DNA from: Trueperaceae bacterium
GTDB taxonomy: Bacteria; Deinococcota; Deinococci; Deinococcales; Trueperaceae
Direction of reading: 5' to 3'
DNA: 64,000 bases
NCBI GenBank assembly: GCA_965213925.1
Contig: OZ243927.1
Coordinates: forward strand, 2,176,001-2,240,000
Shown in pieces: positions 8,626 through 58,766 of the stretch. Numbering within the stretch: position 1 is the stretch's first letter; every line of letters starts with the position of its first letter. A program made the translations under genes and the position numbers. Under the pieces are notes generated by a model. The model was given only the letters and a program-made list of their open reading frames with translations, made no database searches and had not been told where the DNA came from.

Positions 8626-9050
8626 GTGTCCTTGCTCCTACGCGAGAGGGTAAAGTTCGCCTCGAGCTACCCGATATCTCGAGGCGGCTCAAAACCGCTT
8701 TAACAGACGTTGAATGTGACCTTGTGGTGGGCATCGCAACAGGCGGCACGGTCTTGGCAAGCTTGGCTGCCGTTCAACTGGGAGTGCCGCTTAAACTCAT
8801 GCACCTCAACTACCGAGCACGGGACAACGCGCCGCAGCGCGAGAAGCCGGAACTGCTCGAGCCGTTCGAACTGGCGGAGCGACAGCGCGTGCTACTTGTA
8901 GACGACGTGAGCGTGACGGGCGCGACCTTCCGGGTGGCGCTATCTCACTTGACCGGTCACGGCGTCAGGACGTTGGCGCTTAAAGGTCGGGCGGACACCG
9001 TGCTCTACCCTGAGGTGACGCGCTGCGTGCTGCTGCCATGGCGCGACTAA
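8622..9050 (+). CDS. Type I phosphoribosyltransferase family protein
   Basis: VVGIATGG and PRPP loop VLLVDDVSVTGAT; ATGA overlap with uxaC. Confidence 0.8.
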   Translation: MSVLAPTREGKVRLELPDISRRLKTALTDVECDLVVGIATGGTVLASLAAVQLGVPLKLMHLNYRARDNAPQREKPELLEPFELAERQRVLLVDDVSVTGATFRVALSHLTGHGVRTLALKGRADTVLYPEVTRCVLLPWRD

Positions 9051-9111
9051 TGTTTTTCTCTGACGCTGCCGGGTTCGCATAGAGCGCACTTAGTAAATAC
9101 ACCGTAAACTA

Positions 9112-9247
9112 ATAGCAGGTATCATCTGGTTTGAGACAGTCTCACTTTATAAAGCGGCGTTGCTAGGCAGCAAACTGCGTAACTAGCACGCACATTCGGA
9201 GATGATATCTGTGCTCATCCGTCTCAGTATGTTTTGGAACTGCTATA
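9112..9247 (+). mobile_element. MITE-like element, diverged subfamily B copy 1
   Basis: Begins ATAGCAGGTATCATCTGGT and ends GGAACTGCTATA; homologous to 58587-58720 and to the 115-bp family. Confidence 0.75.
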
Positions 9248-9249
9248 AG

Positions 9250-9364
9250 TATAGCAAGTATCATTTGGTTTGAGCCAATCCGAGAAGAGGGAACGCAGTC
9301 TAGCGCGCACGTTTGGAAATGATACTTGCGTGATTCAAGCTCAGTGCTTATGTGAACTGCTATA
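9250..9364 (+). mobile_element. 115-bp MITE-like element, subfamily A copy 1
   Basis: TATAGCA...TGCTATA termini; identical to 40301-40415 and to the reverse complement of 50388-50502. Confidence 0.9.
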
Positions 9365-9379
9365 TTGGCACCTTCTCAC

Positions 9380-9594
9380 TGATGTCACCCTGTTCACGAA
9401 GTAGCCAGTGGGAACGCAGTGACGCGAAGCTTCGGCGGGTCCGAACGAAGTGAGAACAATAGGGGCGTAAGGGTCTCGGTTGGCTACGCCAAAACTGCGT
9501 AACTCGCAATCTCTGGCAGAGGAGTCAGCAAGGTCAGAGATTCTTCGACTCCACGGAGCCTGCCCTGGTGAGGGTTCCGCTCAGAATGACATCA
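9380..9594. repeat. REP/REPIN-like palindromic repeat (GTCAccCTG...CAGaaTGAC), expanded copy
   Basis: Terminal inverted repeat TGATGTCA..CTG / CAG..TGACATCA; colinear with the reverse complement of 28197-28313 apart from insertions. Confidence 0.75.
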
Positions 9595-9686
9595 CTCATT
9601 CTTTAATTAACAGAGTAGTAAGGTCTCTGACGTAAAAATTCTGATAGACTGATGAGACAGACTAATTCGCAGCGAAAGGTAGCTCT

Positions 9687-11015
9687 ATGACATCAACGCG
9701 CTTTATCCTCGTGCTCCTCCTCTGGAGTGGCGCTCTCGCCCAAACGTCCCCAGCCGCCCAGCAGACGGGCGTCAGCGACACGGACAACCGCATCGACCTG
9801 ATCCGACAGGACGCGCCCGAGCTTGCGGCATATGGACCTTATGACATAGGCGTGCGCACCCTAGACCTCGTCAACGAGGACGAACTCGATATTGTGAACG
9901 CGGCACCCGGCGAGCCGGTGCCGCGCTATGACCGTCCGCTCACCGCCGAAGTTTGGTATCCCGCCGCGCTGTCTGGCGCTGAGCCCAGGGGCGAATACGC
10001 CGCCACGACGAGGGACGGCACTCCCACCACGCTCGTAGGGCGCGCCGTAAGGGACGCCGAACCTAACACCGAGGGCGCGCCCTATCCGCTCATCATCCTC
10101 TCGCACGGCTACCCCGGCAACCGCTTTTTGCTCTCTCACCTGGGCGAGAACCTCGCCTCGAAGGGCTACGTGACGGTCTCCATCGACCACACCGACAGCA
10201 CCTACAGCGATCAGGCGACCTTCGGCAGCACGCTCCTCAACCGCCCGCTCGACCAGCAGTTCGTGCTGGACGAGATGGCGCGGCTTTCGCAGGAGGACAG
10301 TGGCAGCTTCTTGGCGGGGCTCGCCAGCGCGGGCGAGATGGGCATCGTCGGCTACTCGATGGGCGCGTACGGCGTGGTGAACCTGCTCGGGGGCGGCTTC
10401 ACGAGGGCGAGCGTCGAGTCGGACTACGCGCCGCCGAACGGGATTCTCGCCCTCAGACAAGAGGGCGACGAGGCGTATGAGGGGAGCGTAGACCCGCGCA
10501 TCAAAGCGGCGGTGGCGATCGCGCCTTGGGGCATGAACACGGGCTTTTGGGACGCGGAGGGGTTGGCGGGCATCGAAACGCCCATCTTCTTTATGGCGGG
10601 CAGCGCCGACGACGTCTCGGGCTACCGCGAGGGGACGAAAGCGATCTTCGAGCGGGCGGTGAACGCCGAGCGCTACTTGCTCACCTTCGAAAACGCGAAC
10701 CACAACGCCGCCGCGCCCATCCCCGCGCCCACCGAGACGTGGGGAGAGGACAGCTTCATGCACTACGCGGACGCGGTCTGGAACACGGTGCGCATGAACA
10801 ACATCGCGCAGCACTTCGCCACCGCCTTTTTTGACCTCGAGCTTAAAGGCGACGAGGAGAAAGGCGCGTATCTGGACCTGCTCCGCAACGCCGAAGACGG
10901 CGTCTACGCGGTGGACGCCTCGGGCGACTTCACCGAGGAGCACACCTACTGGCGAGGCTTTCCGAACCGCACGGCGGTGGGGCTCTCCTTAGAACACGAG
11001 ACGCCCTCGGAATGA
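9687..11015 (+). CDS. Secreted alpha/beta hydrolase (dienelactone hydrolase/PAF-AH-like)
   Basis: Signal peptide, SHGYPG, nucleophile elbow GYSMG, late H in ANHN. Confidence 0.8.
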   Translation: MTSTRFILVLLLWSGALAQTSPAAQQTGVSDTDNRIDLIRQDAPELAAYGPYDIGVRTLDLVNEDELDIVNAAPGEPVPRYDRPLTAEVWYPAALSGAEPRGEYAATTRDGTPTTLVGRAVRDAEPNTEGAPYPLIILSHGYPGNRFLLSHLGENLASKGYVTVSIDHTDSTYSDQATFGSTLLNRPLDQQFVLDEMARLSQEDSGSFLAGLASAGEMGIVGYSMGAYGVVNLLGGGFTRASVESDYAPPNGILALRQEGDEAYEGSVDPRIKAAVAIAPWGMNTGFWDAEGLAGIETPIFFMAGSADDVSGYREGTKAIFERAVNAERYLLTFENANHNAAAPIPAPTETWGEDSFMHYADAVWNTVRMNNIAQHFATAFFDLELKGDEEKGAYLDLLRNAEDGVYAVDASGDFTEEHTYWRGFPNRTAVGLSLEHETPSE

Positions 11016-38701: not shown

Positions 38702-40247
38702 ATGTCGCTTGCGCTTCAGGCGGAGGGCCTAACCTACCGCTATCCCCAACAGCTAGACTTTCTCTTTCAAAATCTCTCTTTATCGCTCTACACCGGCGAT
38801 AAAGTCGCGCTTTTGGGCGCGAACGGCGCGGGTAAAACGACGCTGCTCAACCTCTTGAGTAGTGAGATAGAGCCGCTCGAGGGGCGTGTCACGCGTCACG
38901 ACGAGCCTTATGTCCTCCGCCAAGAGGACCTGCTCAGTGGCGAGGGTAACGTGTTGGACGCGCTCCTGCTGAACTTCCCTGACCTGGGACCGCTCTGGGC
39001 TGAGCTTAAAGCGGTGGAGCGCTCCGGCGTCCCCGACCCGCTGCGCTACGCCGACACGCTCAGCGCCTTTGCCGAGCGCGGCGGCTATGAGGTGCAAAGA
39101 CGTTTAGAAGCCGAACTCACTGCGCTCGAGTTTCCAGCGGACACGTTAGCGCGACCTCTCGCCACCCTCTCCGGCGGCGAGCGGCGACTTTTGCGCCTCG
39201 TGGCGGCGTTCAGTCGTCCGCAAGGGCTCTACCTCTTGGACGAGCCGACGAACTATTTGGATGAGCGCGGCGTCCGCCACTTGGAGACGCGCCTGCGTGA
39301 AACCTCGGCGGCGTGCCTCATCGTCTCGCACGACAGGAAGTTTTTAGATAACACGGTGAGCGCGGTGTGGGAGCTGGAGCGGGGTGGGCTTACGAGGTAT
39401 AGCGGGTCTTATACGAGCTTCCGCCACACCAAAGAGGTGCGCTACAGAGAACAAGTGCGCAAGAGTCAAAAGCTCAAACGCGACATCGCGCAGCTTAGGG
39501 AGCAGGAGCGCACCTACAAGGTGTGGGGCGCGCAAGGAGAAGGAGAAGTCGGGCGCGGTGGACAAGGGCTTTGTCGGCGCACGCGCCGCCCGCCTCACGA
39601 AGCGCGGTATCCAGGCGAAAGAACGGTTGCGCGAGCAGGCTGAAGCGTTGGAGCAGGAGAAGCCTTGGGTGGAGAAGCGTTACGGCGTCCGCTTCGCGGT
39701 GCCCGATGTGCCGAGCGGTGTTTGTCTGAGGGCTCGAGCCTCCAGTTTTGACCTCTTAGTCCCTTGGGGTGAGCGAATTGCGCTTAGAGGGCGTAACGGT
39801 GCGGGCAAGACGACGCTGTTAGAGACCTTTCTTGGTTTGAGCAGGGTTTGTGCGAGTGAAGTGCACTGGGATTCAGAAGCCGTCATCGGCTACTTGCCGC
39901 AGCGCTGGAACGATACCCAAGACGCTAGACCTCTTGCTGAGCGGTTTTTACGCTCTCAACAGGACGAAGCCCGCATTCTTTTAGGCGCGCTCGGTGTAAA
40001 AGGGGACCACTTCACCGCGCCTCTCGGAGCGCTCAGCGAGGGACAAAAGTGCAAGGTGCGTCTGGTCGAAACTATCCTCAAGCGACCCAACGTCCTCGTA
40101 TTGGACGAGCCGACCACGCACCTCGACTATGTAAGTATCGAGATACTCGAGACCGCCCTCTTCAATTTTCCAGGCACCATCCTTTTAGTGAGTCACGACA
40201 GGTATTTGTTAGAGCGAATCGCGGAGCGAACGGTTGCGCTAGACTGA
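38702..40247 (+). pseudogene. ABC-F ATPase (ribosome-protection type), frameshifted near 39530
   Basis: NBD1 GANGAGKT/LSGGE/LDEPTNYLD/SHD; NBD2 GRNGAGKT/LSEGQ/LDEPTTHLD/SHD in a different frame; no transmembrane segments. Confidence 0.85.
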
Positions 40248-40300
40248 CGCAACGCGAGATGGTTTCATTCTGATCTGGTGAAGTGGTAGCAACAGGAGAG

Positions 40301-40415
40301 TATAGCAAGTATCATTTGGTTTGAGCCAATCCGAGAAGAGGGAACGCAGTCTAGCGCGCACGTTTGGAAATGATACTTGCGTGATTCAAGCTCAGTGCTT
40401 ATGTGAACTGCTATA
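40301..40415 (+). mobile_element. 115-bp MITE-like element, subfamily A copy 2
   Basis: Identical to 9250-9364. Confidence 0.9.
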
Positions 40416-40520
40416 AAGCGTGCGAAACGTATGCAAGGCAAACGCCATTTTGTTCAACGTTGCTAGGAAGGCGCTCGCGGTGAGTGCGTCCCTAAAGTTT
40501 TGGTTCGTTCTCTATGGGTG

Positions 40521-40621
40521 ATACCGTTTCCGGTCAAATTACGATGCGAGTAGAAACAGCGACGGATGCCGTGGGTAACGCAGGGGTGCGAAAGTGTCTT
40601 GTAGTGGATCGGAATCCGTAT
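40521..40621. repeat. Deinococcus SRE/SNR-like small repeat
   Basis: Ends ATACCGTTTCCG / CGGAATCCGTAT; core homologous to the reverse complement of 50612-50718. Confidence 0.7.
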
Positions 40622-42078
40622 TAGGACCAAATAGAGCGCATAGACCAGGCCTCAAAGCTCAGCAGCCTCGAGCCTCCTTCCACAAAAGGTTGTACTGACG
40701 CGCCGCCAGGATGCTCCTGATAGACCCTCGTCGTCAGGCAAAACCGCGCGTTGGCGTAGACCTCGGTAACGGAGTGGTCGATGAAGACGCGCAGCTCGAG
40801 CCTTTCTCCTGCCTCTAGCTTTAGTACACCTTCTTGCAGGTCAGTGGCTAGGTTCGCGCCGTCCAACTGAGCAAGCTTCCTACCTGCTGTCAGACGCCCT
40901 GTCGCCGGTGTATAAGTTATCCGCCTTTCGCCTTCAAGCGACAAGATACTTAAACCGCACTTTCCCTCAGTTACTTCGAAAGTAGCGCAAAGCTCGAGCT
41001 GTCTGCCTTGAAAGGATGCGAGGCGTTTGCTCCTCAATTCGCTCAGCTCCGGCGCTGGCGAAAGGCGTAGCGCGTTTCCTTTTAGGTCGATCAGGCGCGG
41101 CAGCGACATCACCCCAGACCACCCCGCGCGGCGCTGCGCGCGCTCGCTCCGCCCCTCCTGCAGCCAGCCCCACATCAAAACGCGCCCTCGGTCATCTCGC
41201 AGCGCTTGGGGCGCGTAGAAGGAAGCGCCGCCGTGATCGAGCGTTTGCACCCGCTCTATAGTAAACTTGCGTTTTTCACCGTGGGGATTAAATCGACCTA
41301 CGAGCGCAACCGTACCGCAAGTTTTGGGCGTTCCGTTATGTTTGAGGAGGCTGAGGAGTAAAACGTGCCGCTCGCCGAACGTGAGCAGTTGCGGGCACTC
41401 CCACACGTCCGCCCGGATGAGGTCTGCTTGAATGAGGTCTGTTTGAATGAGGCCGTTGTCTAAGTCTCGAGCCGTGAGCAGAGGTCCTAGATAACGCCAG
41501 TCGAGCAAATTATCCGAACGGTAGAGGAGTACCGTGCCGCCCACCCCGCGCAGCCCCGCCCCAACGAGCATGTACCAGGTGCCCTCAACGCGCCAGACGT
41601 TGGGGTCGCGAAAAGCGGTCAGCTCGAGCCCTGAAGGGGCGCTCAAGATGGGGTTCGCAGCGTGCTTCGTCCACCTCTTTAGGTCCGCCGACCCCAGCGC
41701 CGCGCAAATGCTCTGACTTTGCGCCACCTCTACGGGACGCCGCACGCCCGTGTAAAACAGCATCGGCTGCCCGCCGTCGTCCACCGCACAACCCGACCAG
41801 CACCCCTCTTCGTCCGCGCTACCGGGCGTCGGCGTGAGCGCGACATCCAGGTCACGCCAATGAACCAGGTCGCGGCTCACCGCGTGCCCCCAGTGGATAC
41901 CGCCCCAAGCGGCGGCCTTCGGGTTGAACTGATAGAAGAGGTGGTATTCGCCCCCCCAGTAGATGAGCCCGTTCGGGTCGTTCATCCACTTTGAGGGCGG
42001 CAAGAAGTGATAGCGCGGTCTATGAGGGTCGTGGGCGAAGGGGGCACGCATAAAGAGGGGTTCGTTGTGAGGTGGCAC
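40621..42078 (-). CDS. GH32 beta-fructofuranosidase family protein
   Basis: WMNDPNG, FRDP, WECP catalytic motifs; GTG start at 42078 after AAGGAG. Confidence 0.92.
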   Translation of the reverse strand: MPPHNEPLFMRAPFAHDPHRPRYHFLPPSKWMNDPNGLIYWGGEYHLFYQFNPKAAAWGGIHWGHAVSRDLVHWRDLDVALTPTPGSADEEGCWSGCAVDDGGQPMLFYTGVRRPVEVAQSQSICAALGSADLKRWTKHAANPILSAPSGLELTAFRDPNVWRVEGTWYMLVGAGLRGVGGTVLLYRSDNLLDWRYLGPLLTARDLDNGLIQTDLIQADLIRADVWECPQLLTFGERHVLLLSLLKHNGTPKTCGTVALVGRFNPHGEKRKFTIERVQTLDHGGASFYAPQALRDDRGRVLMWGWLQEGRSERAQRRAGWSGVMSLPRLIDLKGNALRLSPAPELSELRSKRLASFQGRQLELCATFEVTEGKCGLSILSLEGERRITYTPATGRLTAGRKLAQLDGANLATDLQEGVLKLEAGERLELRVFIDHSVTEVYANARFCLTTRVYQEHPGGASVQPFVEGGSRLLSFEAWSMRSIWS

Positions 42079-42269
42079 GTCAGATAGCTCCTTGAAGGGG
42101 TAGGGTCTTCGTGTCAAGGCTAAGGGTATCGTTTTTTGGCGGCTGGCCCGAGGTCTGTTCGCGAATGTCGCAACGGTCACGTCTCAAAGTGGCTTCACGC
42201 TAACGCCGACGTTGACCGTGACCATGCGGCGTGATTCTCTCAACCGAATAACTCAGCCGATCACGACGT

Positions 42270-43208
42270 CTATCCTTTCACACCTGACGCCGCCACGCTC
42301 TCGATGAACCACCGTTGGAAGAGCAGATACACGACCAAGATGGGCAGCGTCGCCATCGACGCGAACGCCATGATGGAGCCCCAGTCAATGTCTTGCAAAT
42401 AGAGCTGTGTGATACCCACCGTCAAGGGGCGGTAGGTCTCGCCGCGCGTGGTCATGAGGGGCCACAAGTAGGCGCTCCAGATGCTCAGCGTGTGTAAAAT
42501 AGCGACCGTCGCAAAGGCAGGGCGGGCTAGGGGCACGACGATGCGCCAGTAGACGCCGAAAGGCGACGCGCCGTCCACGATGGCGGCCTCGTCGAACTCC
42601 TTGGGAATATCCAAAAAGAACTGGTAGAAGAGGAAGATCGAGAAGGGGTAGGCGATAAAGGGAATGATCTGCACCTGATACGAGTCGAGCCAGGTCTGCA
42701 CGACCTCGAGGCTTAGCCCGCCCCCTAAGTTGACCCAAGGTAGCTCATTCACCACCACGAGCATGGGAATACTGATAGCCTCCAAGGGCACAATGATGAG
42801 CGCGATCACCGCCGCCAGGACGAACGACCTACCGCCCCAGCGCAGACGTGAGAGCGCGTAGGCGATCATGCTGTTGATAAAAAGTCCCGTTCCGACCGTC
42901 ACCACGGTGATGAAGACCGAGTTAAACAAGTAGCGCAAGAAGGGCGTGCGCTCGAAGACGAAACCGTAGTTCTCCCAGGAGAAGCCGCGCGGCACGAAGG
43001 CGAGCACGACCGTCTGCAAGTCCTCGAAGATAAAGCGCTCAGGCTTAAAAGACGAGGCGAACATGAAGACGATGGGAAAGAGAAAGAAGAGCGCGAGCAC
43101 GCTCATGAAGGCGTAGTCGGCGATAGTGAGCCAGCGCCGCCGCGCCTTGCGGCTGACGCCGGGGCGCGGCGCGGTCTTCGTCGTAATCTGCTTCTGCTGG
43201 TCCATCAC
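42270..43208 (-). CDS. Sugar ABC permease
   Basis: EFDEAAIVDGA, C-terminal SGVKG. Confidence 0.92.
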   Translation of the reverse strand: MMDQQKQITTKTAPRPGVSRKARRRWLTIADYAFMSVLALFFLFPIVFMFASSFKPERFIFEDLQTVVLAFVPRGFSWENYGFVFERTPFLRYLFNSVFITVVTVGTGLFINSMIAYALSRLRWGGRSFVLAAVIALIIVPLEAISIPMLVVVNELPWVNLGGGLSLEVVQTWLDSYQVQIIPFIAYPFSIFLFYQFFLDIPKEFDEAAIVDGASPFGVYWRIVVPLARPAFATVAILHTLSIWSAYLWPLMTTRGETYRPLTVGITQLYLQDIDWGSIMAFASMATLPILVVYLLFQRWFIESVAASGVKG

Positions 43209-44278
43209 ACGCCTCCTTCCGAGGGCAGGACGCGGCGCTGTACAAGTGCGATGACCAAAACAATCACGAAAAAGACGATGGTTACCGCCGAGCCGTAGCC
43301 GATTTGCTGCTGCCGAAAGCCCGTATCCACCGCATGGTAGATGATCGAGCGCGTCGCGTTCTGCGGCCCGCCCCGCGTCATCACGTCGATCTGGGTAAAA
43401 ACTCTAAACGCGAGAATCGTCGTGCTGATAAATACAAAGATCGTGGTATTGCGAAGCTGCGGCAGCGTCACGAAGCGGAAGCGCTGGGAGGCGTTCGCCC
43501 CGTCAATCCGCGCCGCCTCGTAGAGCACGAAGGGGATACCCTGGAGACCCGCTAAAAAGATGATCATCTGCAGTCCTACCGAGTGCCAGATAGACAAGAT
43601 CACGACCGCGATGAGCGCCGTGTCCGTCGAGATGAGCCAGGGGATACCGTCTACCGCGCCGAAGGTGATGACCCCTAGAAACTCGTTGATGAGCCCCTGG
43701 TCGGGGTTATAAAGAAAGGTCCAGACGATGGCGATAACCGCCATCGAGGTGACGATCGGCGTGAAGTAAGCCGTGCGGAAGACGTTGATGCCTCTAAGCC
43801 GTTGGTTGACTAAAAGCGCCAACGCGAGCGCCAAGCCGCCCTGCCCTGGCACGATCAAGATGACGAACAAGAAGGTGTTGACCAGTGAGCGCATGAAAAC
43901 TGGGTCTTTGGCGAGCACCGCGCGGGGCGCGCCGAAGAGGTCTACGGTGAACCACTCGCGGAAGCCCTCGTAACGTTCGCTGCCCCGCACGAGGCTGCGC
44001 ACGCGCGGGTAGACCGGGTCGCCTGCTTCGTCCCGCACAACCTCATCCGCATCGTCCCTTTCGGGCTCGAGCGTCAAGATGCTCAAGCTCAAGAGCCTGT
44101 CGTAGTTTTCAAAACCGATGAACTGCGTAGGCAGGGGCGAGATGAGACGCTTGTCGGTCAAGCTCCAATAGAAGCCTAGTGCCAGAGGTGTCGCGATAAA
44201 GAGGAGTGCGAGCAAAATAGCGGGCGAACTCATAGACCAAGCGGCGCGCACCTCGCGCTGGCGGCGGTTGAGAGCCAT
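43205..44278 (-). CDS. Sugar ABC permease
   Basis: FLAGLQGIP..LYEAARIDGA, MTRGGP. Confidence 0.92.
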   Translation of the reverse strand: MALNRRQREVRAAWSMSSPAILLALLFIATPLALGFYWSLTDKRLISPLPTQFIGFENYDRLLSLSILTLEPERDDADEVVRDEAGDPVYPRVRSLVRGSERYEGFREWFTVDLFGAPRAVLAKDPVFMRSLVNTFLFVILIVPGQGGLALALALLVNQRLRGINVFRTAYFTPIVTSMAVIAIVWTFLYNPDQGLINEFLGVITFGAVDGIPWLISTDTALIAVVILSIWHSVGLQMIIFLAGLQGIPFVLYEAARIDGANASQRFRFVTLPQLRNTTIFVFISTTILAFRVFTQIDVMTRGGPQNATRSIIYHAVDTGFRQQQIGYGSAVTIVFFVIVLVIALVQRRVLPSEGGV

Positions 44279-44289
44279 AAAACCTCCTA

Positions 44290-44356
44290 AGAATTCAGTG
44301 GACAGTAGTCAGAATTCGGCCGTGCTTCCTACCCTGAATTCCGACTACTGAATTCT
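44290..44356. repeat. Inverted repeat with heptamer units between binding protein and permease
   Basis: agaattcagt..cagtagtcagaattc ... gaattccgactactgaattct. Confidence 0.6.
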
Positions 44357-44411
44357 ATTTACCCGAGCCTAACGACCGCCCAACTGAGCAGCCATCATGT
44401 CGCCTTACGCC

Positions 44412-45686
44412 CTACTGCTCCGAAGGGGGCGGATAGCCGCTATTCGCCTCGATGTTCTGGTCGATCTGGTCTACAGCAGCGTCGAGTTCGCTCTGCGCGT
44501 CCGCGCCTTTAATAACGTTGTCCATCGCCGTATAAAAGGCTGAGGTGACAACAGGGTATGCGGGCGTCACCGGGCGGGGGAAGCCCAAGCCCTCTTCTAG
44601 CTGCTGGCGGATGACGTACATGTCGCCCCCTTCACTCCACAGCTCTTGCGAATCTAAAAGCGAAAGACGCGCGGGCATCGAGCCGAACTCGCTCGTCCAC
44701 TCGTCTATCTGCTCAGCTGCCAAGAGGTACTCCATGAGCGCCCACGCGCCCTCTTCGTTATCGCATTCGGCGCTCATCGCCCAGGCCCACGAGCCCATCC
44801 CCGTGAGGTGGCGTGCGCCGAAGTTCGGCAGCGTCATGATGACAAGGTCGTCGCCGAAGGCCTCGTGGTAGTCGTTATACATCCAGTTGACGAACCAGCC
44901 TAAACCCGCTTTCCCGTTGACGAACTCGAAGTTGTCGGTAGGCGTTAAGGTCGCGTAGCCCTGCTCGAAGAGCCCCTGCAGCCACTCCATCGCCTGGACC
45001 GATTCCTCGCCGTTTAGGACGCCCTCCGCACTCTCATACTCGGGGCGCTCGATGAGCCCGCCGCCCCACGACTGCAGCGCGGGCGAGAAGGCGTAGGTAT
45101 ACCACTCGCCCGCGCCGAAATTCATCTTGAGGTCGATGGCGTAGTCCGCCGAGTCCAAGTTCTGCACCGCCTCTAAATACTGGTTGAATTCGTCTAACGT
45201 CCAGGGGTCGTCGATACCCTCGGGGATACGCGCGCCAATCGCCTCTAAAACGGGGCGCGTGCTGACCAAGCCGATGCTCGTGTCCGAGGGGCCGATAGCG
45301 TAGAGGTTGCCGTCGTAAGTGCCTTGGTCGGTAATAGAGGGCAAGAAGTCGTCCATGTAGCCTTCGGGCAGATAGTCGTCTAAGGGCTCCAAAAAGCCCG
45401 CCCAGGCGTAGTTGTAGGCGTAGGGGCCGTCTAGGTCGAGCACACAAGGCAAGTTACCTGCGACCGCAGCGGCGTTCACGGCGTCGTTATAGCCGCTGCC
45501 CGAGACCGAACCACCCGGAATCTCGGTGATGACCGCTTCGTACTCGTCTTGCGACTCGTTGAAGCGCGCGATTTGCTCCTCGTAGATGGGCGAGGCGCTA
45601 GACGAGTGGAACCAGATGGTGACCTCTTCTTGCGCGAAGGCGAGCGCGAAAAGAGAGGCGAAAAGTAGTGTGAACAGTCGTTTCAT
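44412..45686 (-). CDS. Sugar ABC substrate-binding protein
   Basis: Signal peptide, LPCVLDLDGP, GMGSWAW, PRPVTPAYP. Confidence 0.9.
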   Translation of the reverse strand: MKRLFTLLFASLFALAFAQEEVTIWFHSSSASPIYEEQIARFNESQDEYEAVITEIPGGSVSGSGYNDAVNAAAVAGNLPCVLDLDGPYAYNYAWAGFLEPLDDYLPEGYMDDFLPSITDQGTYDGNLYAIGPSDTSIGLVSTRPVLEAIGARIPEGIDDPWTLDEFNQYLEAVQNLDSADYAIDLKMNFGAGEWYTYAFSPALQSWGGGLIERPEYESAEGVLNGEESVQAMEWLQGLFEQGYATLTPTDNFEFVNGKAGLGWFVNWMYNDYHEAFGDDLVIMTLPNFGARHLTGMGSWAWAMSAECDNEEGAWALMEYLLAAEQIDEWTSEFGSMPARLSLLDSQELWSEGGDMYVIRQQLEEGLGFPRPVTPAYPVVTSAFYTAMDNVIKGADAQSELDAAVDQIDQNIEANSGYPPPSEQ

Positions 45687-45752
45687 GAACGTTCCTTTCA
45701 GGTAGCTTCGAAAGAGGTACGAGACTTTATGGATGAACCGTAGACCTCCTCT

Positions 45753-46745
45753 CTAAAGGGAGTGACGCGAGATAAGTGGGCAGGGCAGCTTGTGACATAG
45801 AGGTGGTCCGGTTGCCTGGTTGGTGCCAGTCAGATAGTTCACCGCCCAGCGCCCCATCTCGGCGTGGGGTAGCGCGACGGTCGTGAGCGCAGGTCGCAGA
45901 TAGGCGGAAATGACCTCTTGGTTGTCGAAGCCGATGACCGCAACGTCATGAGGGACGTTCAAACTCAATTCAGCCAGCGCGTTATAGACGCCCATCGCCG
46001 TGCGGTCGTTGCCGCAAAATATCGCGGTGGGCGGCGTGGGTAGCGCCATGACACGCCTTGTGATGTCGTAGCCGCCCGTCGCTGTCCAGTCACCCTCGAC
46101 GACGTAACACTCTTCGTAAGGCACACCGAATTTAGCGAGCGCTTGCGTATACCCTTTGTGACGAGCAGGCGCAGCAAATTCGCCGCGCATGTTGATGAGC
46201 GCGATACGCCTGTGACCTCTCTCCAAGAGCGCTTCGGTTGCCCGGTAGCCTGCGCCCGCCTCATCCGGGACGACGCAAACGAAACCCTCGTCGCTAAAGC
46301 AGTTGAGGAGCACAGTCGGCACCTCGTGTAAAAGAGGCGGCGGCGCGACGCGCCGGAAGTACATCGCGGCGTAGATGACACCGTCGACTTGACGGCTTAG
46401 AAGGTTCTCCAGCATCGCCTTTTCACGCGCGACGTCGCCCCCAGTGTTGGCGATGAAGAGCAACTTGCCGCGCTCCCAGGCGGTGCGCTGCGCCCCCTCG
46501 ACCACGCCGACGGCGAAAGGGGTCGTGGCAATCTCGTCGGTGACGAGTGCGATGACGTTCGTCTCTTGCGTGCGCAGGTGCTGCGCCGCTGAATTCGGAC
46601 GGTACTGCAAAGCTTCGATGATGGCGCTAACCTTCTCCCTGGTCTTCGCGCTTACGTTAGGGTGTGCGTTTAGAACCCTCGAGACCGTGCCCACCCCGAC
46701 GCCCGCCAAACGCGCAATATCTTGGATGGTTTGTTTCTCTGACAT
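45753..46745 (-). CDS. LacI-family regulator
   Basis: TIQDIARLAGVGVGTVSRVLN, YRPN, IGFDN, LTTV. Confidence 0.95.
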   Translation of the reverse strand: MSEKQTIQDIARLAGVGVGTVSRVLNAHPNVSAKTREKVSAIIEALQYRPNSAAQHLRTQETNVIALVTDEIATTPFAVGVVEGAQRTAWERGKLLFIANTGGDVAREKAMLENLLSRQVDGVIYAAMYFRRVAPPPLLHEVPTVLLNCFSDEGFVCVVPDEAGAGYRATEALLERGHRRIALINMRGEFAAPARHKGYTQALAKFGVPYEECYVVEGDWTATGGYDITRRVMALPTPPTAIFCGNDRTAMGVYNALAELSLNVPHDVAVIGFDNQEVISAYLRPALTTVALPHAEMGRWAVNYLTGTNQATGPPLCHKLPCPLISRHSL

Positions 46746-46757
46746 AGCGATCTCCAG

Positions 46758-46775
46758 TTTGGAATCGTTTCCAAA
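46758..46775. promoter_or_regulatory. LacI-type operator
   Basis: TTTGGAATCGTTTCCAAA, a dyad with central CG just upstream of the LacI gene. Confidence 0.7.
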
Positions 46776-46964
46776 TCACTCTCAAAAACGAGCGGTTGTG
46801 AAACAGCAAGTTGTTTAAGACCCCTTTAAGCTAGCAGACACGTTTCAGTCTGTCAATGGAGCGTGTAAAACAGGTGGCGCAACGTCTACCGGGTCGCACT
46901 CGAAAAGGAGCGCAACTGGTGGTGTGAGGCTCGAGCTTCACGCAGAAACTTCGGCAGACCGGTT

Positions 46965-47001
46965 CTGCTTGATTTATACACCTCTTTGCATATACTATCA
47001 G
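46965..47001 (+). promoter_or_regulatory. argF promoter overlapped by candidate tandem ARG boxes
   Basis: TTGATT(46969)-16-TATACT(46991); AT-rich TGC..TATACA and TGCATA..ATCA boxes. Confidence 0.45.
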
Positions 47002-47016
47002 TTCTTTGAGGCTCAA

Positions 47017-47095
47017 AGCAGGTATTATCTGGTCACAGAAGCCCTCGCTGGAAGAAGCGTCGGCTTCGCGCACGCGCTGAGGGATAATACTTGCG
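47017..47095 (+). repeat. Degenerate core of the MITE-like family in the argF leader
   Basis: AGCAGGTATTATCTGGT...GCGCACGC...GGATAATACTTGCG retains the 13-bp stem but not the 3' terminus. Confidence 0.55.
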
Positions 47096-47142
47096 AAAAC
47101 GTAATGATATTGACGTAACGACTCGAGCCGGAAGGACTTCTA

Positions 47143-48093
47143 ATGACCACTACCGCCGACGTACCCGCCGTTGACAGCCTGAAAGGACGCGACCTCCTCT
47201 CTCTCGCCGACCTCTCTAAAGAAGAATTTAGGGGGCTTTTGCAAAGCGCTCACATCATGAAAAACAACTTTAAGCGCGGCGAACGTCCGCTCTATTTGCA
47301 GGGTAAAACGATCGCGATGATCTTCGAGAAGCAGTCCTTGCGCACGCGCTCGACGTTTGACATCGCCATGTACCAACTCGGCGGACACTCGGTGCTGCTG
47401 AGTCAGAACTACATCGGCTGGGGCGTGCGCGAGACCATCAAGGACGTGGCGCACAACTTAGAGCGCTGGGTCGAGGGCATCATGGCACGGACCTATGGGC
47501 ACGGGACGCTCGTAGAACTCGCCCGCTACGCGCACGTACCGATTATCAACGGGCTCTCAGATTTGGTGCACCCCTGTCAGCTCACGGCGGACTACCTCAC
47601 GCTCAAAGAGGAGTTTGGCGTTTTAGAGGGCGTCAAAGTCTGCTTCGTCGGCGACGGCAACAACGTCGCCAACTCGCACCTCTACGCGGCGATGCACGCG
47701 GGAACCTCCCTGACGATCGCCTGCCCGGAAGGGTTCGACCCGGACGAGGGCGTCTTAGAACAGGCGCGGGAGAGCGGCGCGGACGTGACCATCGAGCGAG
47801 ACCCGAGGGCGGCGGCGAGAGGGGCAGATGTGCTCTACACCGACGTGTGGATTTCGATGGGACAAGAGGAGGAGACCGAGCGGCGCAGGGAGGCGTTCGC
47901 GGGCTACACGGTGACACCCGAATGGTTCGCTGACCTCTCCGAAAGAGGTATTTTCATGCACGACTTGCCCGCGCACTACGGCGAAGAGTGCACCGAAGAC
48001 GCCGTCTACCACGAGCGTAGCCGCGTCTTCGACCAAGCGGAGAACAGGCTACACGCGCATAAAGCCATCCTCTTTCAGCTTTTGAGGGATTAG
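47143..48093 (+). CDS. argF: Ornithine carbamoyltransferase
   Basis: FEKQSLRTR, HPCQ, GDGNNV, DVWISMG, HDLP, QAENRLH. Confidence 0.92.
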   Translation: MTTTADVPAVDSLKGRDLLSLADLSKEEFRGLLQSAHIMKNNFKRGERPLYLQGKTIAMIFEKQSLRTRSTFDIAMYQLGGHSVLLSQNYIGWGVRETIKDVAHNLERWVEGIMARTYGHGTLVELARYAHVPIINGLSDLVHPCQLTADYLTLKEEFGVLEGVKVCFVGDGNNVANSHLYAAMHAGTSLTIACPEGFDPDEGVLEQARESGADVTIERDPRAAARGADVLYTDVWISMGQEEETERRREAFAGYTVTPEWFADLSERGIFMHDLPAHYGEECTEDAVYHERSRVFDQAENRLHAHKAILFQLLRD

Positions 48094-48095
48094 GC

Positions 48096-49169
48096 GTGGC
48101 GGATAAAGTAAGAGTCGGCATTCTCGGCGCGAGCGGCTACGGTGGTGCGGGCCTCTTGCGGCGCTTAGCGGTTCATCCGCAGGTGGAGGTGACAAGCGTT
48201 GCCTCGAGGCAATTCATCGACCAGAACGTCAGCGCGTGTTGGCCGCAACTCGTCGGGCACTTTCCTTTAACCTTCCAGGATAACGACGCCGTGATCGAAT
48301 CTTGTGACGTGCTCTTCTGCGCCACCCCGCACGGCGCAACGGCACCTCTTGTCAAACAGGCACTGGACGCAGGCTGCAAAGTCATCGACCTCTCCGCTGA
48401 CTTCCGCTTGCCACCGGACGAGTACGCCCACTGGTACGGCGAGCATCCCCACCCTGAGCTTTACGAACGCGCGGTGTACGGTCTCGTTGAGCTTCACCGC
48501 GACGAGTTGAGGGGGGCGGAGCTTGTCGCGAATCCGGGGTGCAACTCATCGGCTGCCATCCTCGCCCTCGCACCGCTTGCCGCGCACGGGCTGTTAGGAC
48601 GCGGTACAGTCATCAGCAACGCTTCGGGCGTGTCGGGGGCGGGGCGCAGTCCGAGTTTGGGGCTGCACTACCCTGAACTCAACGAGGACATGAGACCGTA
48701 CAAAGTTGCGGGGACGCACCGCCACACCGCCGAAATCGAGGCGACGTTGGGACGGGTACAACACATGGGACGGCATCTGAAGACGCACGAGGCGTTCGAC
48801 AAGCCAATTGTAACGCTTTCGCCGCATCTCGTTCCGATGACGAGAGGTATTTTAGCGACCTGCCATACGAGACCCGAGGAGACAGATAGACCTCTTAGCA
48901 ACGAGAGTTTGCTCGAGCTTTACGGGTCTTTCTATCAAAATGAACCGCTCGTCAGCGTGCAGACGGACTTGCCGCAAACCAAGGCGGTCTATGGAGGTGA
49001 CAGATGCGTCCTCAGTGTGCGCTATGACGAGCGAAGTGGGCACATCGTGGCGATGGCGGTCATCGACAACTTGGGTAAGGGCGCGGCGGGGCAAGCGGTG
49101 CACAACTTCAACCTGATGATGGGTTTCGAGGAGACGCTCGGGCTTTTTACGCAGGGGGTGTGGCCATGA
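48096..49169 (+). CDS. argC: N-acetyl-gamma-glutamyl-phosphate reductase
   Basis: GASGYGG, DLSADFR, ANPGC, SGVSGAGR, DNLGKGAAGQA. Confidence 0.93.
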   Translation: MADKVRVGILGASGYGGAGLLRRLAVHPQVEVTSVASRQFIDQNVSACWPQLVGHFPLTFQDNDAVIESCDVLFCATPHGATAPLVKQALDAGCKVIDLSADFRLPPDEYAHWYGEHPHPELYERAVYGLVELHRDELRGAELVANPGCNSSAAILALAPLAAHGLLGRGTVISNASGVSGAGRSPSLGLHYPELNEDMRPYKVAGTHRHTAEIEATLGRVQHMGRHLKTHEAFDKPIVTLSPHLVPMTRGILATCHTRPEETDRPLSNESLLELYGSFYQNEPLVSVQTDLPQTKAVYGGDRCVLSVRYDERSGHIVAMAVIDNLGKGAAGQAVHNFNLMMGFEETLGLFTQGVWP

Positions 49170-50314
49170 GTATACCTATGAGGTTACCGAAAGGATTTCG
49201 CGGGGCGGGCGTGGCGACGGGCATCAAGGCGTCGGGTAAGCCGGACTTGGCGCTTATCGCTGGACAGGTCGGGCTGAGCTGGGCACTAGCTTCGACGACA
49301 AACACGCTTAAAGCGCCCTTTGTGACGCGAAATGCTCAGCGTTATGGATCGGGTGAAGAGGTTCGCGCGGTTGCGATCAGCAGCGGCAACGCGAACTGCG
49401 CGGCGCAAGGGGACGTGGCGGCGAACGAGGCGTTCGTGGCGGCGGTGGCGAAGAGGTTGGGGGTTGTCTCTCAAGAGGTCTTGACGCTAAGCACCGGCGT
49501 CATCGGTCACGCTCTGCCTGTGGGTAAGATCGAGGCGGCACTCCCGAACGTGGCGCTTTCGGGAGAGGTAGAACCCATCGCCGCAGCGATTCTCACCACT
49601 GACCTTGTACTCAAAACGGCTGAGGTCGAACTGGGGGGCGGCGCACGGGTCGTCGGCGTCGCCAAAGGCTCCGGTATGATTCACCCGAACATGGCGACGA
49701 TGCTGGCGTTTGTTCTAACAGATGCCGACGTGCCGCAAGCCGACCTGCGCGAAGTGTGGGCTGAGGTCGTCAACGGGAGTTTCAACCAAGTGACGGTGGA
49801 CGGGGACACGTCGCCCAACGACACGGCGCTCTTACTCTCGAGCCAGCAAACCCTAGCCGATACGGAAGAGGTCACAGGGGCGCTCCTCAGCGTCTGCCAG
49901 GATTTGGCGAAACAGATCGCCAGGGACGGTGAAGGGGCGACGAAGCTCCTTACCGTTCAAGTGACGGGGGCAAAAGATGTAGAAGAAGCGAGGCGGGCGG
50001 CTAGGGCGGTTGTCCTCAGCCCTTTGGTCAAAGCGGCGGCGCACGGCAACGACCCGAACTGGGGGCGCATTTTAAGTTCTGTAGGCGCAACAGGCGTGGC
50101 ACTCGACCTCGCTAAACTCTCCATTCGTGTGCAAGGTCAAGAGGTTTATTGCGGCGAGGCTCGAGCATTTGACGCGGAGGAGGTCTCCCGTAAGATGGAC
50201 GCGCCCGACCTCTCCATTGAGGTTGACTTAGGCGTAGGTGAAGCAGCAGGGAAAGCGTGGGGTTGCGACCTCTCGGCGGACTACGTGCGGATCAACGCGG
50301 ACTATCACACGTGA
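49166..50314 (+). CDS. argJ: Ornithine acetyltransferase
   Basis: SGNAN, STGVIG, TTD, AKGSGMIHPNMATML, DGDTSPND, DGEGATK, DPNWGR. Confidence 0.95.
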   Translation: MSIPMRLPKGFRGAGVATGIKASGKPDLALIAGQVGLSWALASTTNTLKAPFVTRNAQRYGSGEEVRAVAISSGNANCAAQGDVAANEAFVAAVAKRLGVVSQEVLTLSTGVIGHALPVGKIEAALPNVALSGEVEPIAAAILTTDLVLKTAEVELGGGARVVGVAKGSGMIHPNMATMLAFVLTDADVPQADLREVWAEVVNGSFNQVTVDGDTSPNDTALLLSSQQTLADTEEVTGALLSVCQDLAKQIARDGEGATKLLTVQVTGAKDVEEARRAARAVVLSPLVKAAAHGNDPNWGRILSSVGATGVALDLAKLSIRVQGQEVYCGEARAFDAEEVSRKMDAPDLSIEVDLGVGEAAGKAWGCDLSADYVRINADYHT

Positions 50315-50324
50315 GCATCCTTTG

Positions 50325-50572
50325 ATACGGATTCCGATTGATTCGCTATGTTAGCGAATCAATTCGAGCGCAGCGAGTAAGAAGAAATATAGCAGTTCAC
50401 ATAAGCACTGAGCTTGAATCACGCAAGTATCATTTCCAAACGTGCGCGCTAGACTGCGTTCCCTCTTCTCGGATTGGCTCAAACCAAATGATACTTGCTA
50501 TATACGGATGGAGCGGTGTGGACTGTCACCGAGGCTTTTTCTCGGTGATAGGGCACTAAGCGGGATCCGTAT
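50325..50572. repeat. Deinococcus SRE/SNR-like repeat interrupted by the 115-bp element
   Basis: Ends ATACGGATTCCG / CGGGATCCGTAT; internal hairpins at about 50336-50364 and 50524-50550. Confidence 0.75.
50388..50502 (-). mobile_element. 115-bp MITE-like element, subfamily A copy 3
   Basis: Exact reverse complement of 9250-9364. Confidence 0.9.
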
Positions 50573-50611
50573 GACCTCTCGAAGAGGGTATGGAGCCCTC
50601 TCTAGCAGGTT

Positions 50612-50718
50612 ATATAGATTCCGGGTGAATCCACTGCAAAATGCATTCGCACCCCTGCGTTACTCACCGGCATCCGTCGCTGTTTCAACTCGCTATGCTC
50701 GTTTGCTGGAGCCCGCAT
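50612..50718. repeat. SRE/SNR-like repeat, degenerate ends
   Basis: Reverse complement shares GCGAGT.GAAACAGCGACGGATGCCG..GTAACGCAGGGGTGCGAA with 40521-40621. Confidence 0.7.
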
Positions 50719-51686
50719 TACGCTCGTAGCAACACCGCTCGCGCCGCCGCATCGTCCGTCACGAGCACATCCGTGTAGCCGCCGCGCAGGGCACCTAAAA
50801 TAGCTTGCGCTTTCCCCAAACCGCCCGCAACGGTGACGACTTCGCGCACGTCTCGCAGCGTCTCTAACCCGATCGTGATCGCCCGCTCGTTAAAGAGCGT
50901 GTCGGTGAGGGTTCCGTCTTCATCAAAGAACTGAGCGCACATGTGCCCGACTGCGCCGCTAGCGCTGAGGCGCTCCAAGTCCGCCTTACTCAAGTAGTCC
51001 GCAAAGATGAGCCCCGCCGCACTAGGCGTCAGAGGGCTCACGCCCATCAAAATCACGTCCGCTTGGCGGGCAATTTGTAAGAGGTCTTTGACGAGCGGCT
51101 CCTGTGTGAGTAGCGCGCGCGTCCGCGCGCTCTCGACCATCAAAGGCGCGTGGAGGTAGCGGTACGCCCCGCCGTAGAGGTTGGCGAGTTGCCGCGCCAA
51201 GTCGGGACCGTCTTGCAGAGGATTACCCGAGCCCAACGCGCCGATAACTTGAAGGACGACGATGTCGGCGAGGCTCTTAGACTTGACACGCTGCACGACG
51301 CTCGCCACCGAGCGCCCATACGAGACACCCACGATCATCCCGTCCGTAACGACCTCGTCTAAATAGCTCGCCGCGAGCTGCCCCATCCCGCCGATGACCT
51401 CACCCTCTGAACGTCCAAAACTGCGCAGCACGCGCGCTTCTTTGAGGTCGAAGTGCGCCTTGAGTTCTCGTTCCAGCAAGCTGTCCCTCGCCAGACTGTA
51501 GTCGATCGAAATCTGTACGACGCCGCGCGCTCTGGCTTCTTGTAAGAGCCTAGAGACCGTCGAGCGCGAGGTGCCGACCCGCCGCCCGATTTCGGCTTGG
51601 GTGCGACCCTCTTCGTAGTAGAGCATGGCGACCTCGATGAGGAGGGCTAAGTCGTTGGGGTTGGTTAAGGTGTCGGTCCGGGTCAT
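50718..51686 (-). CDS. SorC/DeoR-family sugar-binding regulator
   Basis: AMLYYEEGRTQAEI..SRSTVSRLLQEAR, GVSYGRS, VAGG..KA.AILGALRGG..LVTD. Confidence 0.92.
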   Translation of the reverse strand: MTRTDTLTNPNDLALLIEVAMLYYEEGRTQAEIGRRVGTSRSTVSRLLQEARARGVVQISIDYSLARDSLLERELKAHFDLKEARVLRSFGRSEGEVIGGMGQLAASYLDEVVTDGMIVGVSYGRSVASVVQRVKSKSLADIVVLQVIGALGSGNPLQDGPDLARQLANLYGGAYRYLHAPLMVESARTRALLTQEPLVKDLLQIARQADVILMGVSPLTPSAAGLIFADYLSKADLERLSASGAVGHMCAQFFDEDGTLTDTLFNERAITIGLETLRDVREVVTVAGGLGKAQAILGALRGGYTDVLVTDDAAARAVLLRA

Positions 51687-58556: not shown

Positions 58557-58586
58557 CAGGCTACAAGTATAGGGTTTTTCGTTCAC

Positions 58587-58720
58587 ATAGCAGGTATCAT
58601 CTGGTCTGAGTGTACGTAGTTCTGCGAAGCAACACTCTCACTCTACAAAGCAGCGTTTAGCACGCACCTTATAAGATGATATCTGCGGCATTCTGTCTCA
58701 GTATGTTGTGGAACTGCTTA
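58587..58720 (+). mobile_element. MITE-like element, diverged subfamily B copy 2
   Basis: ATAGCAGGTATCATCTGGT...AGATGATATCTGC...GTCTCAGTATGTTGTGGAACTGCTTA. Confidence 0.75.
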
Positions 58721-58766
58721 CATTCACACCCTTAGGGTTCATCTAGCGGTGGTAGAGTAGTCTCCT

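Follow-up and report, generated by a model that had tools for sequence, protein, structure and literature searches.

The small repeat found in several copies in the 64,000-nt window analyzed here (the whole stretch, C1:2176001-2240000 of a Trueperaceae genome) is best explained as a miniature inverted-repeat transposable element (MITE) with ends of the IS630 type and a hairpin as its cargo. We put the probability of this overall reading at roughly 60%. The cargo is a single 13-bp hairpin, referred to as P1, that is maintained by compensatory changes and is common to several genera of Trueperaceae, while the loops and the inverted repeats around it vary. The genome (G000; comparison genomes are labelled G001, G002, G005, G020, G024, G298, G361 and so on) has a size of 4.75 Mb in 6 contigs, a G+C content of 58%, and a completeness of 96.9%.

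The initial annotation of the window had listed three identical 115-bp copies and three diverged relatives. Sequence comparison confirmed that the trio is letter-identical (9250-9364 and 40301-40415 on the + strand and 50388-50502 on the - strand), and an iterated nhmmer profile recovered the relatives at 9112-9245, 58587-58718, and 47017-47097. Beyond these six, the window has no match to the family profile. The stem motif GCAAGTATCATTT, with up to 2 mismatches allowed, occurs 8 times in the window; shuffling gives an expectation of 0.51, and none of 100 shuffles reached 8. A genome-wide BLAST search with the 115-bp copy returned 6 identical copies, 3 copies at 99.1% identity, and 1 at 97.4%. 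The 6 identical copies sit at unrelated loci. The element is small, non-coding, present in multiple copies, and recently moved.

Successive nhmmer iterations raised the number of family matches from 71 to 200 and then to 222, all of them on the chromosome contig C1 (116 on the + strand and 106 on the - strand). The family thus has at least 222 copies, and its core is ~112 nt long. Near full length are 107 of the matches, 44 of which have a core of 111-112 nt, and other length groups lie near 133, 155, 178, and 200 nt. These stepped length classes arise from ~22-nt hairpin modules that are inserted at a few recurrent places within copies; one such module has 18 matches in the genome, including 6 outside the family. 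According to crude calls based on open reading frames (ORFs), in which stops are exact for a called ORF and starts are those of the longest ORF, 217 of the 222 copies are intergenic and 5 lie inside called genes.

The copies also fall into types by the inner block at their 5' end. GAGAC is present in 36 copies (32 with the right inverted repeat), GAGCC in 39 (35 with one), and GCTAC in 13, and a further 52 copies start with TCAC or TCAT, 40 of which lack the right terminus. Thirty copies stop before model position 90 and are hairpin-only forms. A minimal hairpin, consisting of both arms and a 10-nt loop, is found at G000 C1 ~1800541-1800580, beside or within coding sequence. Outside this genome, a copy of the A subfamily, to which the identical trio belongs, occurs in another species of the genus (L034, G002:C7:2745-2859). 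It is 98% identical, but the flanking coding DNA is only 76-80% identical. This difference suggests a recent transfer or an active master copy that was very recently shared.

Evidence for IS630-type ends comes from insertion sequences (ISs) residing in the same genome. A Pfam DDE_3 search gave 11 matches, the best of which lies in an IS of ~1005 bp (IS_L001, C1:1889061-1890065). Its orfA matches HTH_Tnp_IS630 (7e-10), its orfB matches DDE_3 (2e-31), and a run of seven A separates the two frames. Its left inverted repeat (IRL) is TAGCACTTCCAAAAGACATTGAGACAGAGG, and its other end is TAGCACTTCCACGACTCATTGAGACAGATA. The right end of the MITE copy at 9112-9247, a member of the B subfamily, agrees with this IRL at 24 of 30 positions, the same score as that between the IRL and the right inverted repeat (IRR) of the IS itself. 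In other words, the right ~30 nt of the MITE is an IS630-type terminal inverted repeat. The left end of the B-subfamily MITE scores 16/30 against the IRL, with TAGCA and TTGAGACA in register and 14 nt apart in both. It thus keeps only the outer TAGCA and the inner block of that repeat, at the same spacing. An end of a second IS of this genome, IS_L002 (TAGCATTTCCATTTCTCGCTGCTACAAG), matches the MITE subfamily that carries GCTACAC/GTGTAGC ends, and the congener G002 holds 8 copies of related ISs with TAGCA ends. The proposal that the TA-flanked repeat is an IS630/Tc1-type MITE is therefore borne out by ISs with the same termini in the genome together with TA flanks, and we regard the origin of the element as a MITE of an IS630-type IS as very probable.

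Several other IS630-type genes were considered as partners and rejected. A two-copy IS630 (L004) located beside the family copy at 3387734 has unrelated ends (TATACCAACCTGAA), an intact 308-aa IS630-like gene (L003) has no TAGCA ends, and different ends were also found on the IS630-type genes that were sampled in G001, G005, G020, and G361.

The flanks of the copies are consistent with a TA target-site duplication. Over 165 left ends the profile reads T 54% and A 60%, followed by T 73%, A 100%, and GCAGG; over 117 right ends it reads CTGCT and A 60%, followed by T 63% and A 58%. In the 100 copies with a right repeat, the corresponding values are T 65%, A 68%, T 90%, and A 100%. The copy at 50388-50502 offers a paralogous empty site, which fits a TA duplication with the element running from TAGCA to TGCTA, although the boundary is ambiguous between TA/GCA and TA/TAGCA. 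Orthologous empty sites for the A copies of the window were not found in three relatives, whose intergenic regions have diverged too far and are crowded with other repeats. In two contig sets of one sample compared with 40000-51000, the contigs break at repeats and none spans the element, and neither an empty allele nor a duplication was seen. How such an element would move is suggested by ISY100, whose transposase binds and protects the whole of its 24-bp inverted repeats by means of two helix-turn-helix motifs and an AT-hook-like linker and duplicates TA, according to the accessible text of PMC2170065. If the behavior of ISY100 in vitro is a guide, a DDE transposase of the IS630 type, provided in trans, would bind both ends of the MITE as double-stranded DNA, and the same enzyme would cut and paste the MITE into TA.

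A number of observations weigh against this account of the ends. IS_L001 and IS_L002 are both single-copy, and IS_L001 requires a frameshift between orfA and orfB. No IS with the inner block of the A subfamily was found in this genome, although A is the recently amplified subfamily. G001, which has the most copies of the motif (232), has no match to IS_L001 orfB at E<=1e-10, and G298 has 43 motif copies and no DDE_3 match. Finally, the left end of the MITE agrees with the conserved outer block of the IS at only 6 of 11 positions by eye, and its use by that transposase is putative.

The initial annotation had also described two internal pairings, P1 and a second complementarity that would cross it as a pseudoknot. 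Pairs were counted on MAFFT alignments of 40 copies that are less than 93% identical, and change events were placed by parsimony on a FastTree tree of 150 distinct copies. The second complementarity, P2 (TTGAGC/GCTCAG and TTGAGAC/GTCTCAG), is present, with 71.8% of cells paired and two-sided changes at 5 of its 8 pairs. However, the pseudoknot is not borne out: P2 turns out to consist of the inner blocks of the two terminal inverted repeats, whose outer blocks are the TATAGCA/TGCTATA ends. We consider it highly likely that the second pairing, including GCTACAC/GTGTAGC, is nothing other than the inner blocks of two inverted repeats. The changes in P2 from one subfamily to another follow two different cognate ISs, and it appears to covary because each subfamily matches its own transposase. 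Since a transposase would bind both ends as double-stranded DNA, what looked like a pseudoknot reduces to two inverted repeats. P2 shows no preference for G-U, with 43 changes from a Watson-Crick (WC) pair to G-U versus 50 to A-C, nor does the pairing designated P0 (10 versus 20), and P2 pairs at 71.8% on the strand of the element versus 74.3% on the other strand. Known IS ends thus account for the second pairing, but no such match was found for the 13-bp stem.

The 13-bp stem and its compensatory changes are real. The exchanges are G-C/A-U at pair 10-81, C-G/U-A at 18-73, and C-G/U-A at 15-76 in the 40 copies, and 96.3% of the P1 cells are paired. P1 is the sole helix reported by RNAalifold, and a mutual-information scan, which was dominated by subfamily structure, yielded no new helix. 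On the tree, 13 branches carry a double change from one WC pair to another, next to 78 WC-to-GU, 31 WC-to-AC, and 54 WC-to-other events. Of its two arms, the 5' one occupies the spacer of the left repeat, where the IS has unrelated sequence, and the 3' one lies ~50 nt inside. As far as the sequences go, P1 is unexplained by IS ends, and its selection for pairing is likely.

A copy between infA and rpmJ is common to G000 and G001 and absent from G002, G020, and G024, which makes it a lineage-specific insertion, and in this orthologous copy G000 shows an exchange of A-T for G-C in P1. The insertion (L087, G000 C1 16350-17050; L091, L092, L094, L095) comprises a copy and ~35 further nt and lies 2 nt after the infA stop. 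In G020 and G024 the spacer is only ~10 nt long and holds the ribosome-binding site; therefore, the insertion replaced the rpmJ leader in one lineage.

Does P1 pair as RNA or single-stranded DNA rather than as duplex DNA? Every remaining mismatch in the stem had been described as G-T on the same strand. This holds for the stem of the window copies but not genome-wide, where the 13 pairs contain 242 G-U and 58 A-C cells. The excess of G-U resides in four pairs, 7-76, 8-75, 9-74, and the terminal 16-67 (196 G-U versus 8 A-C cells), and the other nine pairs have 46 G-U versus 50 A-C cells. At position 73, a neighbor of the G-U-rich pairs, plain mismatches are frequent too. P1 is 96.3% paired on the strand of the element versus 89.4% on the other strand. 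G-U is the outcome in 78 of 109 transition events against a baseline of 55% taken from unpaired columns (489 versus 403; binomial p=5e-4), and p is 6e-3 once the composition of the arms is allowed for. The strand asymmetry of P1 is thus real but modest.

Its conservation marks the 5' arm as more than one half of a stem. On terminal branches, the 5' arm has accumulated 5.4 substitutions per site and the 3' arm 10.5, compared with 14.4 for the inner repeat block and 18.1 for the loop, and conservation of the 5' arm continues past the paired part through GG and T. A profile without the first 19 nt gave 150 matches that start at the beginning of the profile, and the arm was present (<=8 mismatches) in 107 of them; most of the other 43 carry module insertions. 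Conservation of the arm is therefore no artefact of detection, because copies detected without the arm keep it. Both arms are letter-identical to the consensus of this genome in three other genera, represented by G020, G298, and G361. The loops of G020 and G298 are unrelated in sequence, and that of G361 is different from the loop of this genome but related.

An exact 15-mer that includes the 5' arm region, GCAGGTATCATCTGG, occurs in 21 of 364 Deinococcota genomes including G000, with up to 232 copies per genome. It was found in 19 of 127 other Trueperaceae genomes (10 of 60 genera); in the sister family f2 it has 1 match, in a single one of 125 genomes, and it is missing from the other 111 genomes. 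The reversed 15-mer, used as a control, has 0 matches in any of the 364 genomes. A scan of public genomes for the stem pattern gave at least 37 loci, and all the listed ones are titled Trueperaceae or Truepera metagenome-assembled genomes. G361, with 88 copies of the 15-mer, carries an unusually heavy IS630 load of at least 150 DDE_3 (IS630-type) matches of several kinds. In several genomes the 15-mer also occurs alone in tandem arrays, which contain between 2 and at least 6 units repeated every 23-32 nt, for instance at L097 (G327), L098 (G265), L099 (G326), and L013 (G001), and in G000 at C1 near 2572217 and 663223. Every array terminates in a sequence resembling the beginning of an element, and a complementary arm is missing from all of them; they could have arisen by slippage, by nested insertions, or through one-ended events. 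A variant that shares 17 of 18 nt with the 5' arm sits in an unrelated small repeat.

The copies are oriented with respect to neighboring genes: on crude gene calls for this one genome, gene boundaries adjoin the hairpin-bearing 5' end much more often than the 3' end. When the upstream gene is co-oriented, its stop codon lies within -5 to +10 nt of the 5' end in 22 of 79 cases versus 4 of 74 for the 3' end (p=2e-4), and it often overlaps or directly precedes the TAG of the element. The start of a divergent gene lies within 30 nt of the 5' end in 39 of 112 cases versus 4 of 47 for the 3' end (p=4e-4). In the window, the 5' end of the B copy at 58587..58720 adjoins the start of a crudely called gene on the opposite strand with a gap of 0. 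GGAGG is present 0-5 nt outward of the 5' end in 17 of 191 copies and of the 3' end in 0 of 121, with a random background of 29/5000. Of the 46 tRNA genes, 6 have family copies at a distance of 3-6 nt. There are seven such copies, four at a tRNA 3' end and three at a 5' end, and all seven point their 5' end at the tRNA. One tRNA-Ser gene (G000 C1 1856811-1857103) has family copies on both sides, 5-6 nt away, with their 5' ends facing it. Boundaries are hit because TA occurs in stop codons and beside ribosome-binding sites. However, the presence of TA at these places does not explain the polarity itself. Sigma-70 consensus promoters were not found in or beside the copies at 9000-9700 and 58400-58900, and a by-eye search for -10 and -35 boxes at the ends was unconvincing.

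How might the hairpin act at such boundaries? One possibility is that the hairpin-bearing end is found at gene boundaries because P1 acts as a boundary hairpin. P1 would be part of the transcripts of flanking genes, where it would follow stop codons and the 3' ends of tRNAs; on the opposite strand, it would precede ribosome-binding sites and the 5' ends of tRNAs. By analogy with the hairpins of REP, ERIC, and Correia elements, a boundary hairpin would render insertions near genes harmless or useful. That P1 acts in RNA at transcript boundaries is a tentative proposal and the least certain step of the reading. Four observations speak against a role in RNA. Between tandem genes the strand of the element is antisense in 78 cases versus sense in 48. 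The excess of G-U is limited to four pairs, and the G-U share is 0.73-0.84 in all four contexts of flanking-gene direction. Lastly, the 5' arm is more conserved than pairing needs and also stands alone in tandem arrays.

A bolder version of the proposal, which we hold to be doubtful, treats the invariant hairpin (GCAGGTATCATCT / AGATGATACCTGC, with a free loop) as a self-standing module that would be read by a conserved Trueperaceae protein or RNA-processing enzyme and would repeatedly have acquired different IS630-type ends as a means of spreading. The hairpin would then either direct the polar position tight against stops, ribosome-binding sites, and tRNA ends or survive only in it, and the whole would be a mobile transcript-boundary element.

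The main rival to the hairpin reading holds that a protein recognizes the arms of P1 as double-stranded DNA; this protein would be the transposase of an IS that is extinct or was not sampled, or else a DNA-binding protein of the host. P1 would then be an old pair of inverted repeats or an operator-like repeat, the 80-nt form would be the original one, and the IS630 right end would have been added later. Much about the 5' arm agrees with this view: it is far more conserved than its partner (5.4 versus 10.5), also beyond the paired part, its 15-mer recurs in 19 of the 127 other Trueperaceae genomes while the reversed control has none, and it is found without a partner in the arrays and as the 17/18 variant in the unrelated repeat. 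The 30 hairpin-only copies also fit. Nevertheless, the arms have changed together in 13 double compensatory events, and the A subfamily has changed two positions in both arms, which the site of an unchanged protein should not tolerate. The internal arm also has neither the TA nor the inner block of a real terminus, and among 172 matches to the left end (<=3 mismatches), 147 of which belong to the family, none of 11 inspected of the other 25 is an IS terminus. We therefore consider a DNA site unlikely. A reading in which P1 has no present function, its conservation reflecting recent descent from active masters and its polarity an insertion bias of asymmetric ends, is improbable. Identical and near-identical copies do reveal recent bursts, the 98% identical copy in the congener is flanked by genes that are only 76-80% identical, and the ends are truly asymmetric (24/30 versus 16/30 to the IS IRL). 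However, copies that differ by 25-30% overall, or that stand in other genera with unrelated loops, retain both arms; compensatory changes occur; and the arm is less variable (5.4) than the inner blocks of the inverted repeats (14.4), on which transposase binding depends.

The suggestion in the initial annotation that the cargo is selected as a folded RNA or single-stranded DNA is borne out in part, in that one stem, P1, is kept by pairing and is not accounted for by the IS ends; a ribozyme, a guide, or any further fold is unsupported. A mobile structured non-coding RNA (a ribozyme, a riboswitch-like RNA, or a guide RNA) that combines the stem with a crossing pseudoknot and is selected on one strand is very improbable. 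It would agree with the covariation of P1, with its better pairing on the strand of the element, with the 78 WC-to-GU versus 31 WC-to-AC events, and with a loop motif, TAGCACGCAC, that is conserved within this genus. However, the crossing pairing is formed by inverted repeats that match those of cognate ISs, other genera have an unrelated sequence in place of the loop and its TAGCACGCAC motif, RNAalifold finds one helix only, and the G-U excess is confined to four pairs. Folding z-scores are weak (-0.6 to -2.8) and no better on the strand of the element. The sequence belongs to no known RNA family in Rfam, with 0 matches at gathering score over the whole window and 0 at E<=10 over 9080-9400. 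A TnpB gene was not found either (PF07282: 0 matches in this 96.9% complete genome; IscB and IS110 families were not searched). The same absence bears on a hairpin of single-stranded DNA for an HUH (Y1) transposase, as in IS200/IS605 ends, PATEs, and the REP/REPIN-RAYT system. The preference for top-strand pairing, for which this reading would account, the sequence-specific arms with a variable loop, and the hundreds of intergenic copies are in keeping with it. REP/BIME elements are likewise intergenic, co-transcribed hairpins with a proposed orientation-dependent effect on mRNA stability, and REPs accompany RAYT Y1 transposases. This genome, however, has no match to Y1_Tnp (PF01797: 0), the copies have inverted repeats and TA flanks, which HUH elements lack, and the arms themselves are not palindromic REPs. 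An IS200/IS605 derivative (a PATE or a TnpB omega/reRNA guide) and a REP/REPIN with a RAYT were both rejected on these grounds, and the HUH reading is the least credible of all. The preferred reading thus remains an IS630-type MITE that carries the P1 hairpin.

The features of the window that belong to the family are collected below.

Table. Members of the MITE family in the window and their parts (positions in the window).
Feature	Position	Strand	Remark
A-subfamily MITE copy, TA + TAGCA...TGCTA + TA	9250..9364	+	one of 6 genome-wide identical copies
Left terminal inverted repeat, chimeric: outer TAGCA and inner TTGAGCC block, P1 5' arm in the spacer between	9252..9276	+	
P1 5' arm GCAAGTATCATTT	9254..9266	+	
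P1 3' arm AAATGATACTTGC	9317..9329	+	
Right terminal inverted repeat, IS630 type: inner GCTCA block, spacer, outer TGCTA	9335..9362	+	
B-subfamily copy in tandem with the A copy	9112..9247	+	right end is the one that scores 24/30 against the IS_L001 IRL
P1 arms of the B copy at 9112..9247	9115-9127 and 9200-9212	+	two G-T pairs
~24-nt hairpin module nested in the B copy	9159..9182	+	boundaries +/- ~2 nt; explains the extra length of the copy
Identical A-subfamily copy	40301..40415	+	
Identical A-subfamily copy inside another ~140-nt repeat	50388..50502	-	uninterrupted paralogues of the repeat are empty sites
B-subfamily copy with a ~23-nt module after GAG (58611-58633, approximate)	58587..58720	+	
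Short form (model positions 3-82): P1 hairpin and loop only, without right inverted repeat	47017..47097	+	

The ~140-nt intergenic repeat that hosts one of the A copies (GATTCGCTA..TAGCGAATC ... CACCGAG..CTCGGTG) covers 50300-50387 and 50503-50590 of the window. Other copies of it lie at G000 C1 4198251, 4094674, 1375520, and elsewhere. At other loci it hosts a different small repeat (AAGAGTCTTTAACAGCAGGTAGCATCTGGTCAT...), which is the one that shares 17 of 18 nt with the 5' arm of the family.

The closest known case is RUP, the 107-bp repeat unit of pneumococcus, together with IS630-Spn1, to which RUP has been attributed by the similarity of inverted repeats (PMC2229807). Like the present family, RUP is ~110 nt long, non-coding, intergenic, and present in ~100 or more copies; its ends resemble those of an IS630-family IS of the same genome, its target is TA, and near-identical copies indicate recent mobility (PMC2229807). 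Unlike RUP, the family has a chimeric left repeat in which the spacer, an invariant 13-15-mer, has its pairing partner in an internal arm, and its subfamilies match different ISs. For RUP, the accessible text of PMC2229807 reports no further structural or functional motif.

Hairpins of MITEs are known to affect neighboring mRNAs (PMC2229807). The Correia or NEMIS elements of Neisseria resemble the family in being TA-flanked MITEs of ~107-155 bp that have length variants and lie near genes, and their transcribed hairpins affect neighboring mRNAs (PMC2229807). However, the Correia hairpin consists of the two inverted repeats themselves, and no cognate IS is given for it in the accessible text (PMC2229807). 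In the present family, for which a cognate IS has been identified, the stem joins the left end to an internal site, and end-to-end pairing is weaker than that of P1 (79% and 72%). The end sequence of Correia elements is TATAG.... ERIC or IRU elements are also intergenic repeats; they are co-transcribed with flanking genes, with a proposed orientation-dependent effect on mRNA stability, and they have 7-bp inverted repeats and, in the accessible text, no assigned IS (PMC2229807). The CIR repeats of Caulobacter and Brucella share a length of ~110 nt and a short conserved motif in a context of conserved secondary structure, but CIRs are without inverted repeats, and the motif in their case is a methyltransferase site located in a loop (PMC2229807). 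In the family described here, the conserved motif is the stem itself, and the ends are of the IS630 type.

Within the same order, Deinococcus radiodurans has hundreds of short intergenic mosaic repeats, the SNRs (PMC1978522). The mosaic side of the present family lies in its optional ~22-nt modules. No sequence link to the SNRs was found by the 15-mer search alone (1 match, in 1 of 125 f2 genomes); SNR sequences were not compared directly. A literature search on Truepera MITEs, Deinococcus small noncoding repeats, and IS630, MITE, and TA gave no description of this MITE family, with subscription journals outside its coverage.

As a MITE, the family is ordinary; its chimeric left end, its invariant hairpin spanning genera, and its polar placement are unusual. 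Few bacterial MITE families have an identified autonomous partner. Two MITE subfamilies in one genome, each matched to its own IS630-type IS, form a clean system for finding the inverted-repeat positions needed by a Tc1-like transposase. The family also holds a caution for the discovery of RNAs by covariation, as inverted repeats that co-evolve with a transposase mimic a covarying helix and even a pseudoknot. What the IS ends leave unexplained is a stem that keeps the same sequence from genus to genus, unlike the loop and the transposase-binding blocks, and that sits at the end of the element found at gene and tRNA boundaries. If this stem is functional, it would be a transposon cargo shaped by its effect on neighboring transcripts, or a new protein-binding site.

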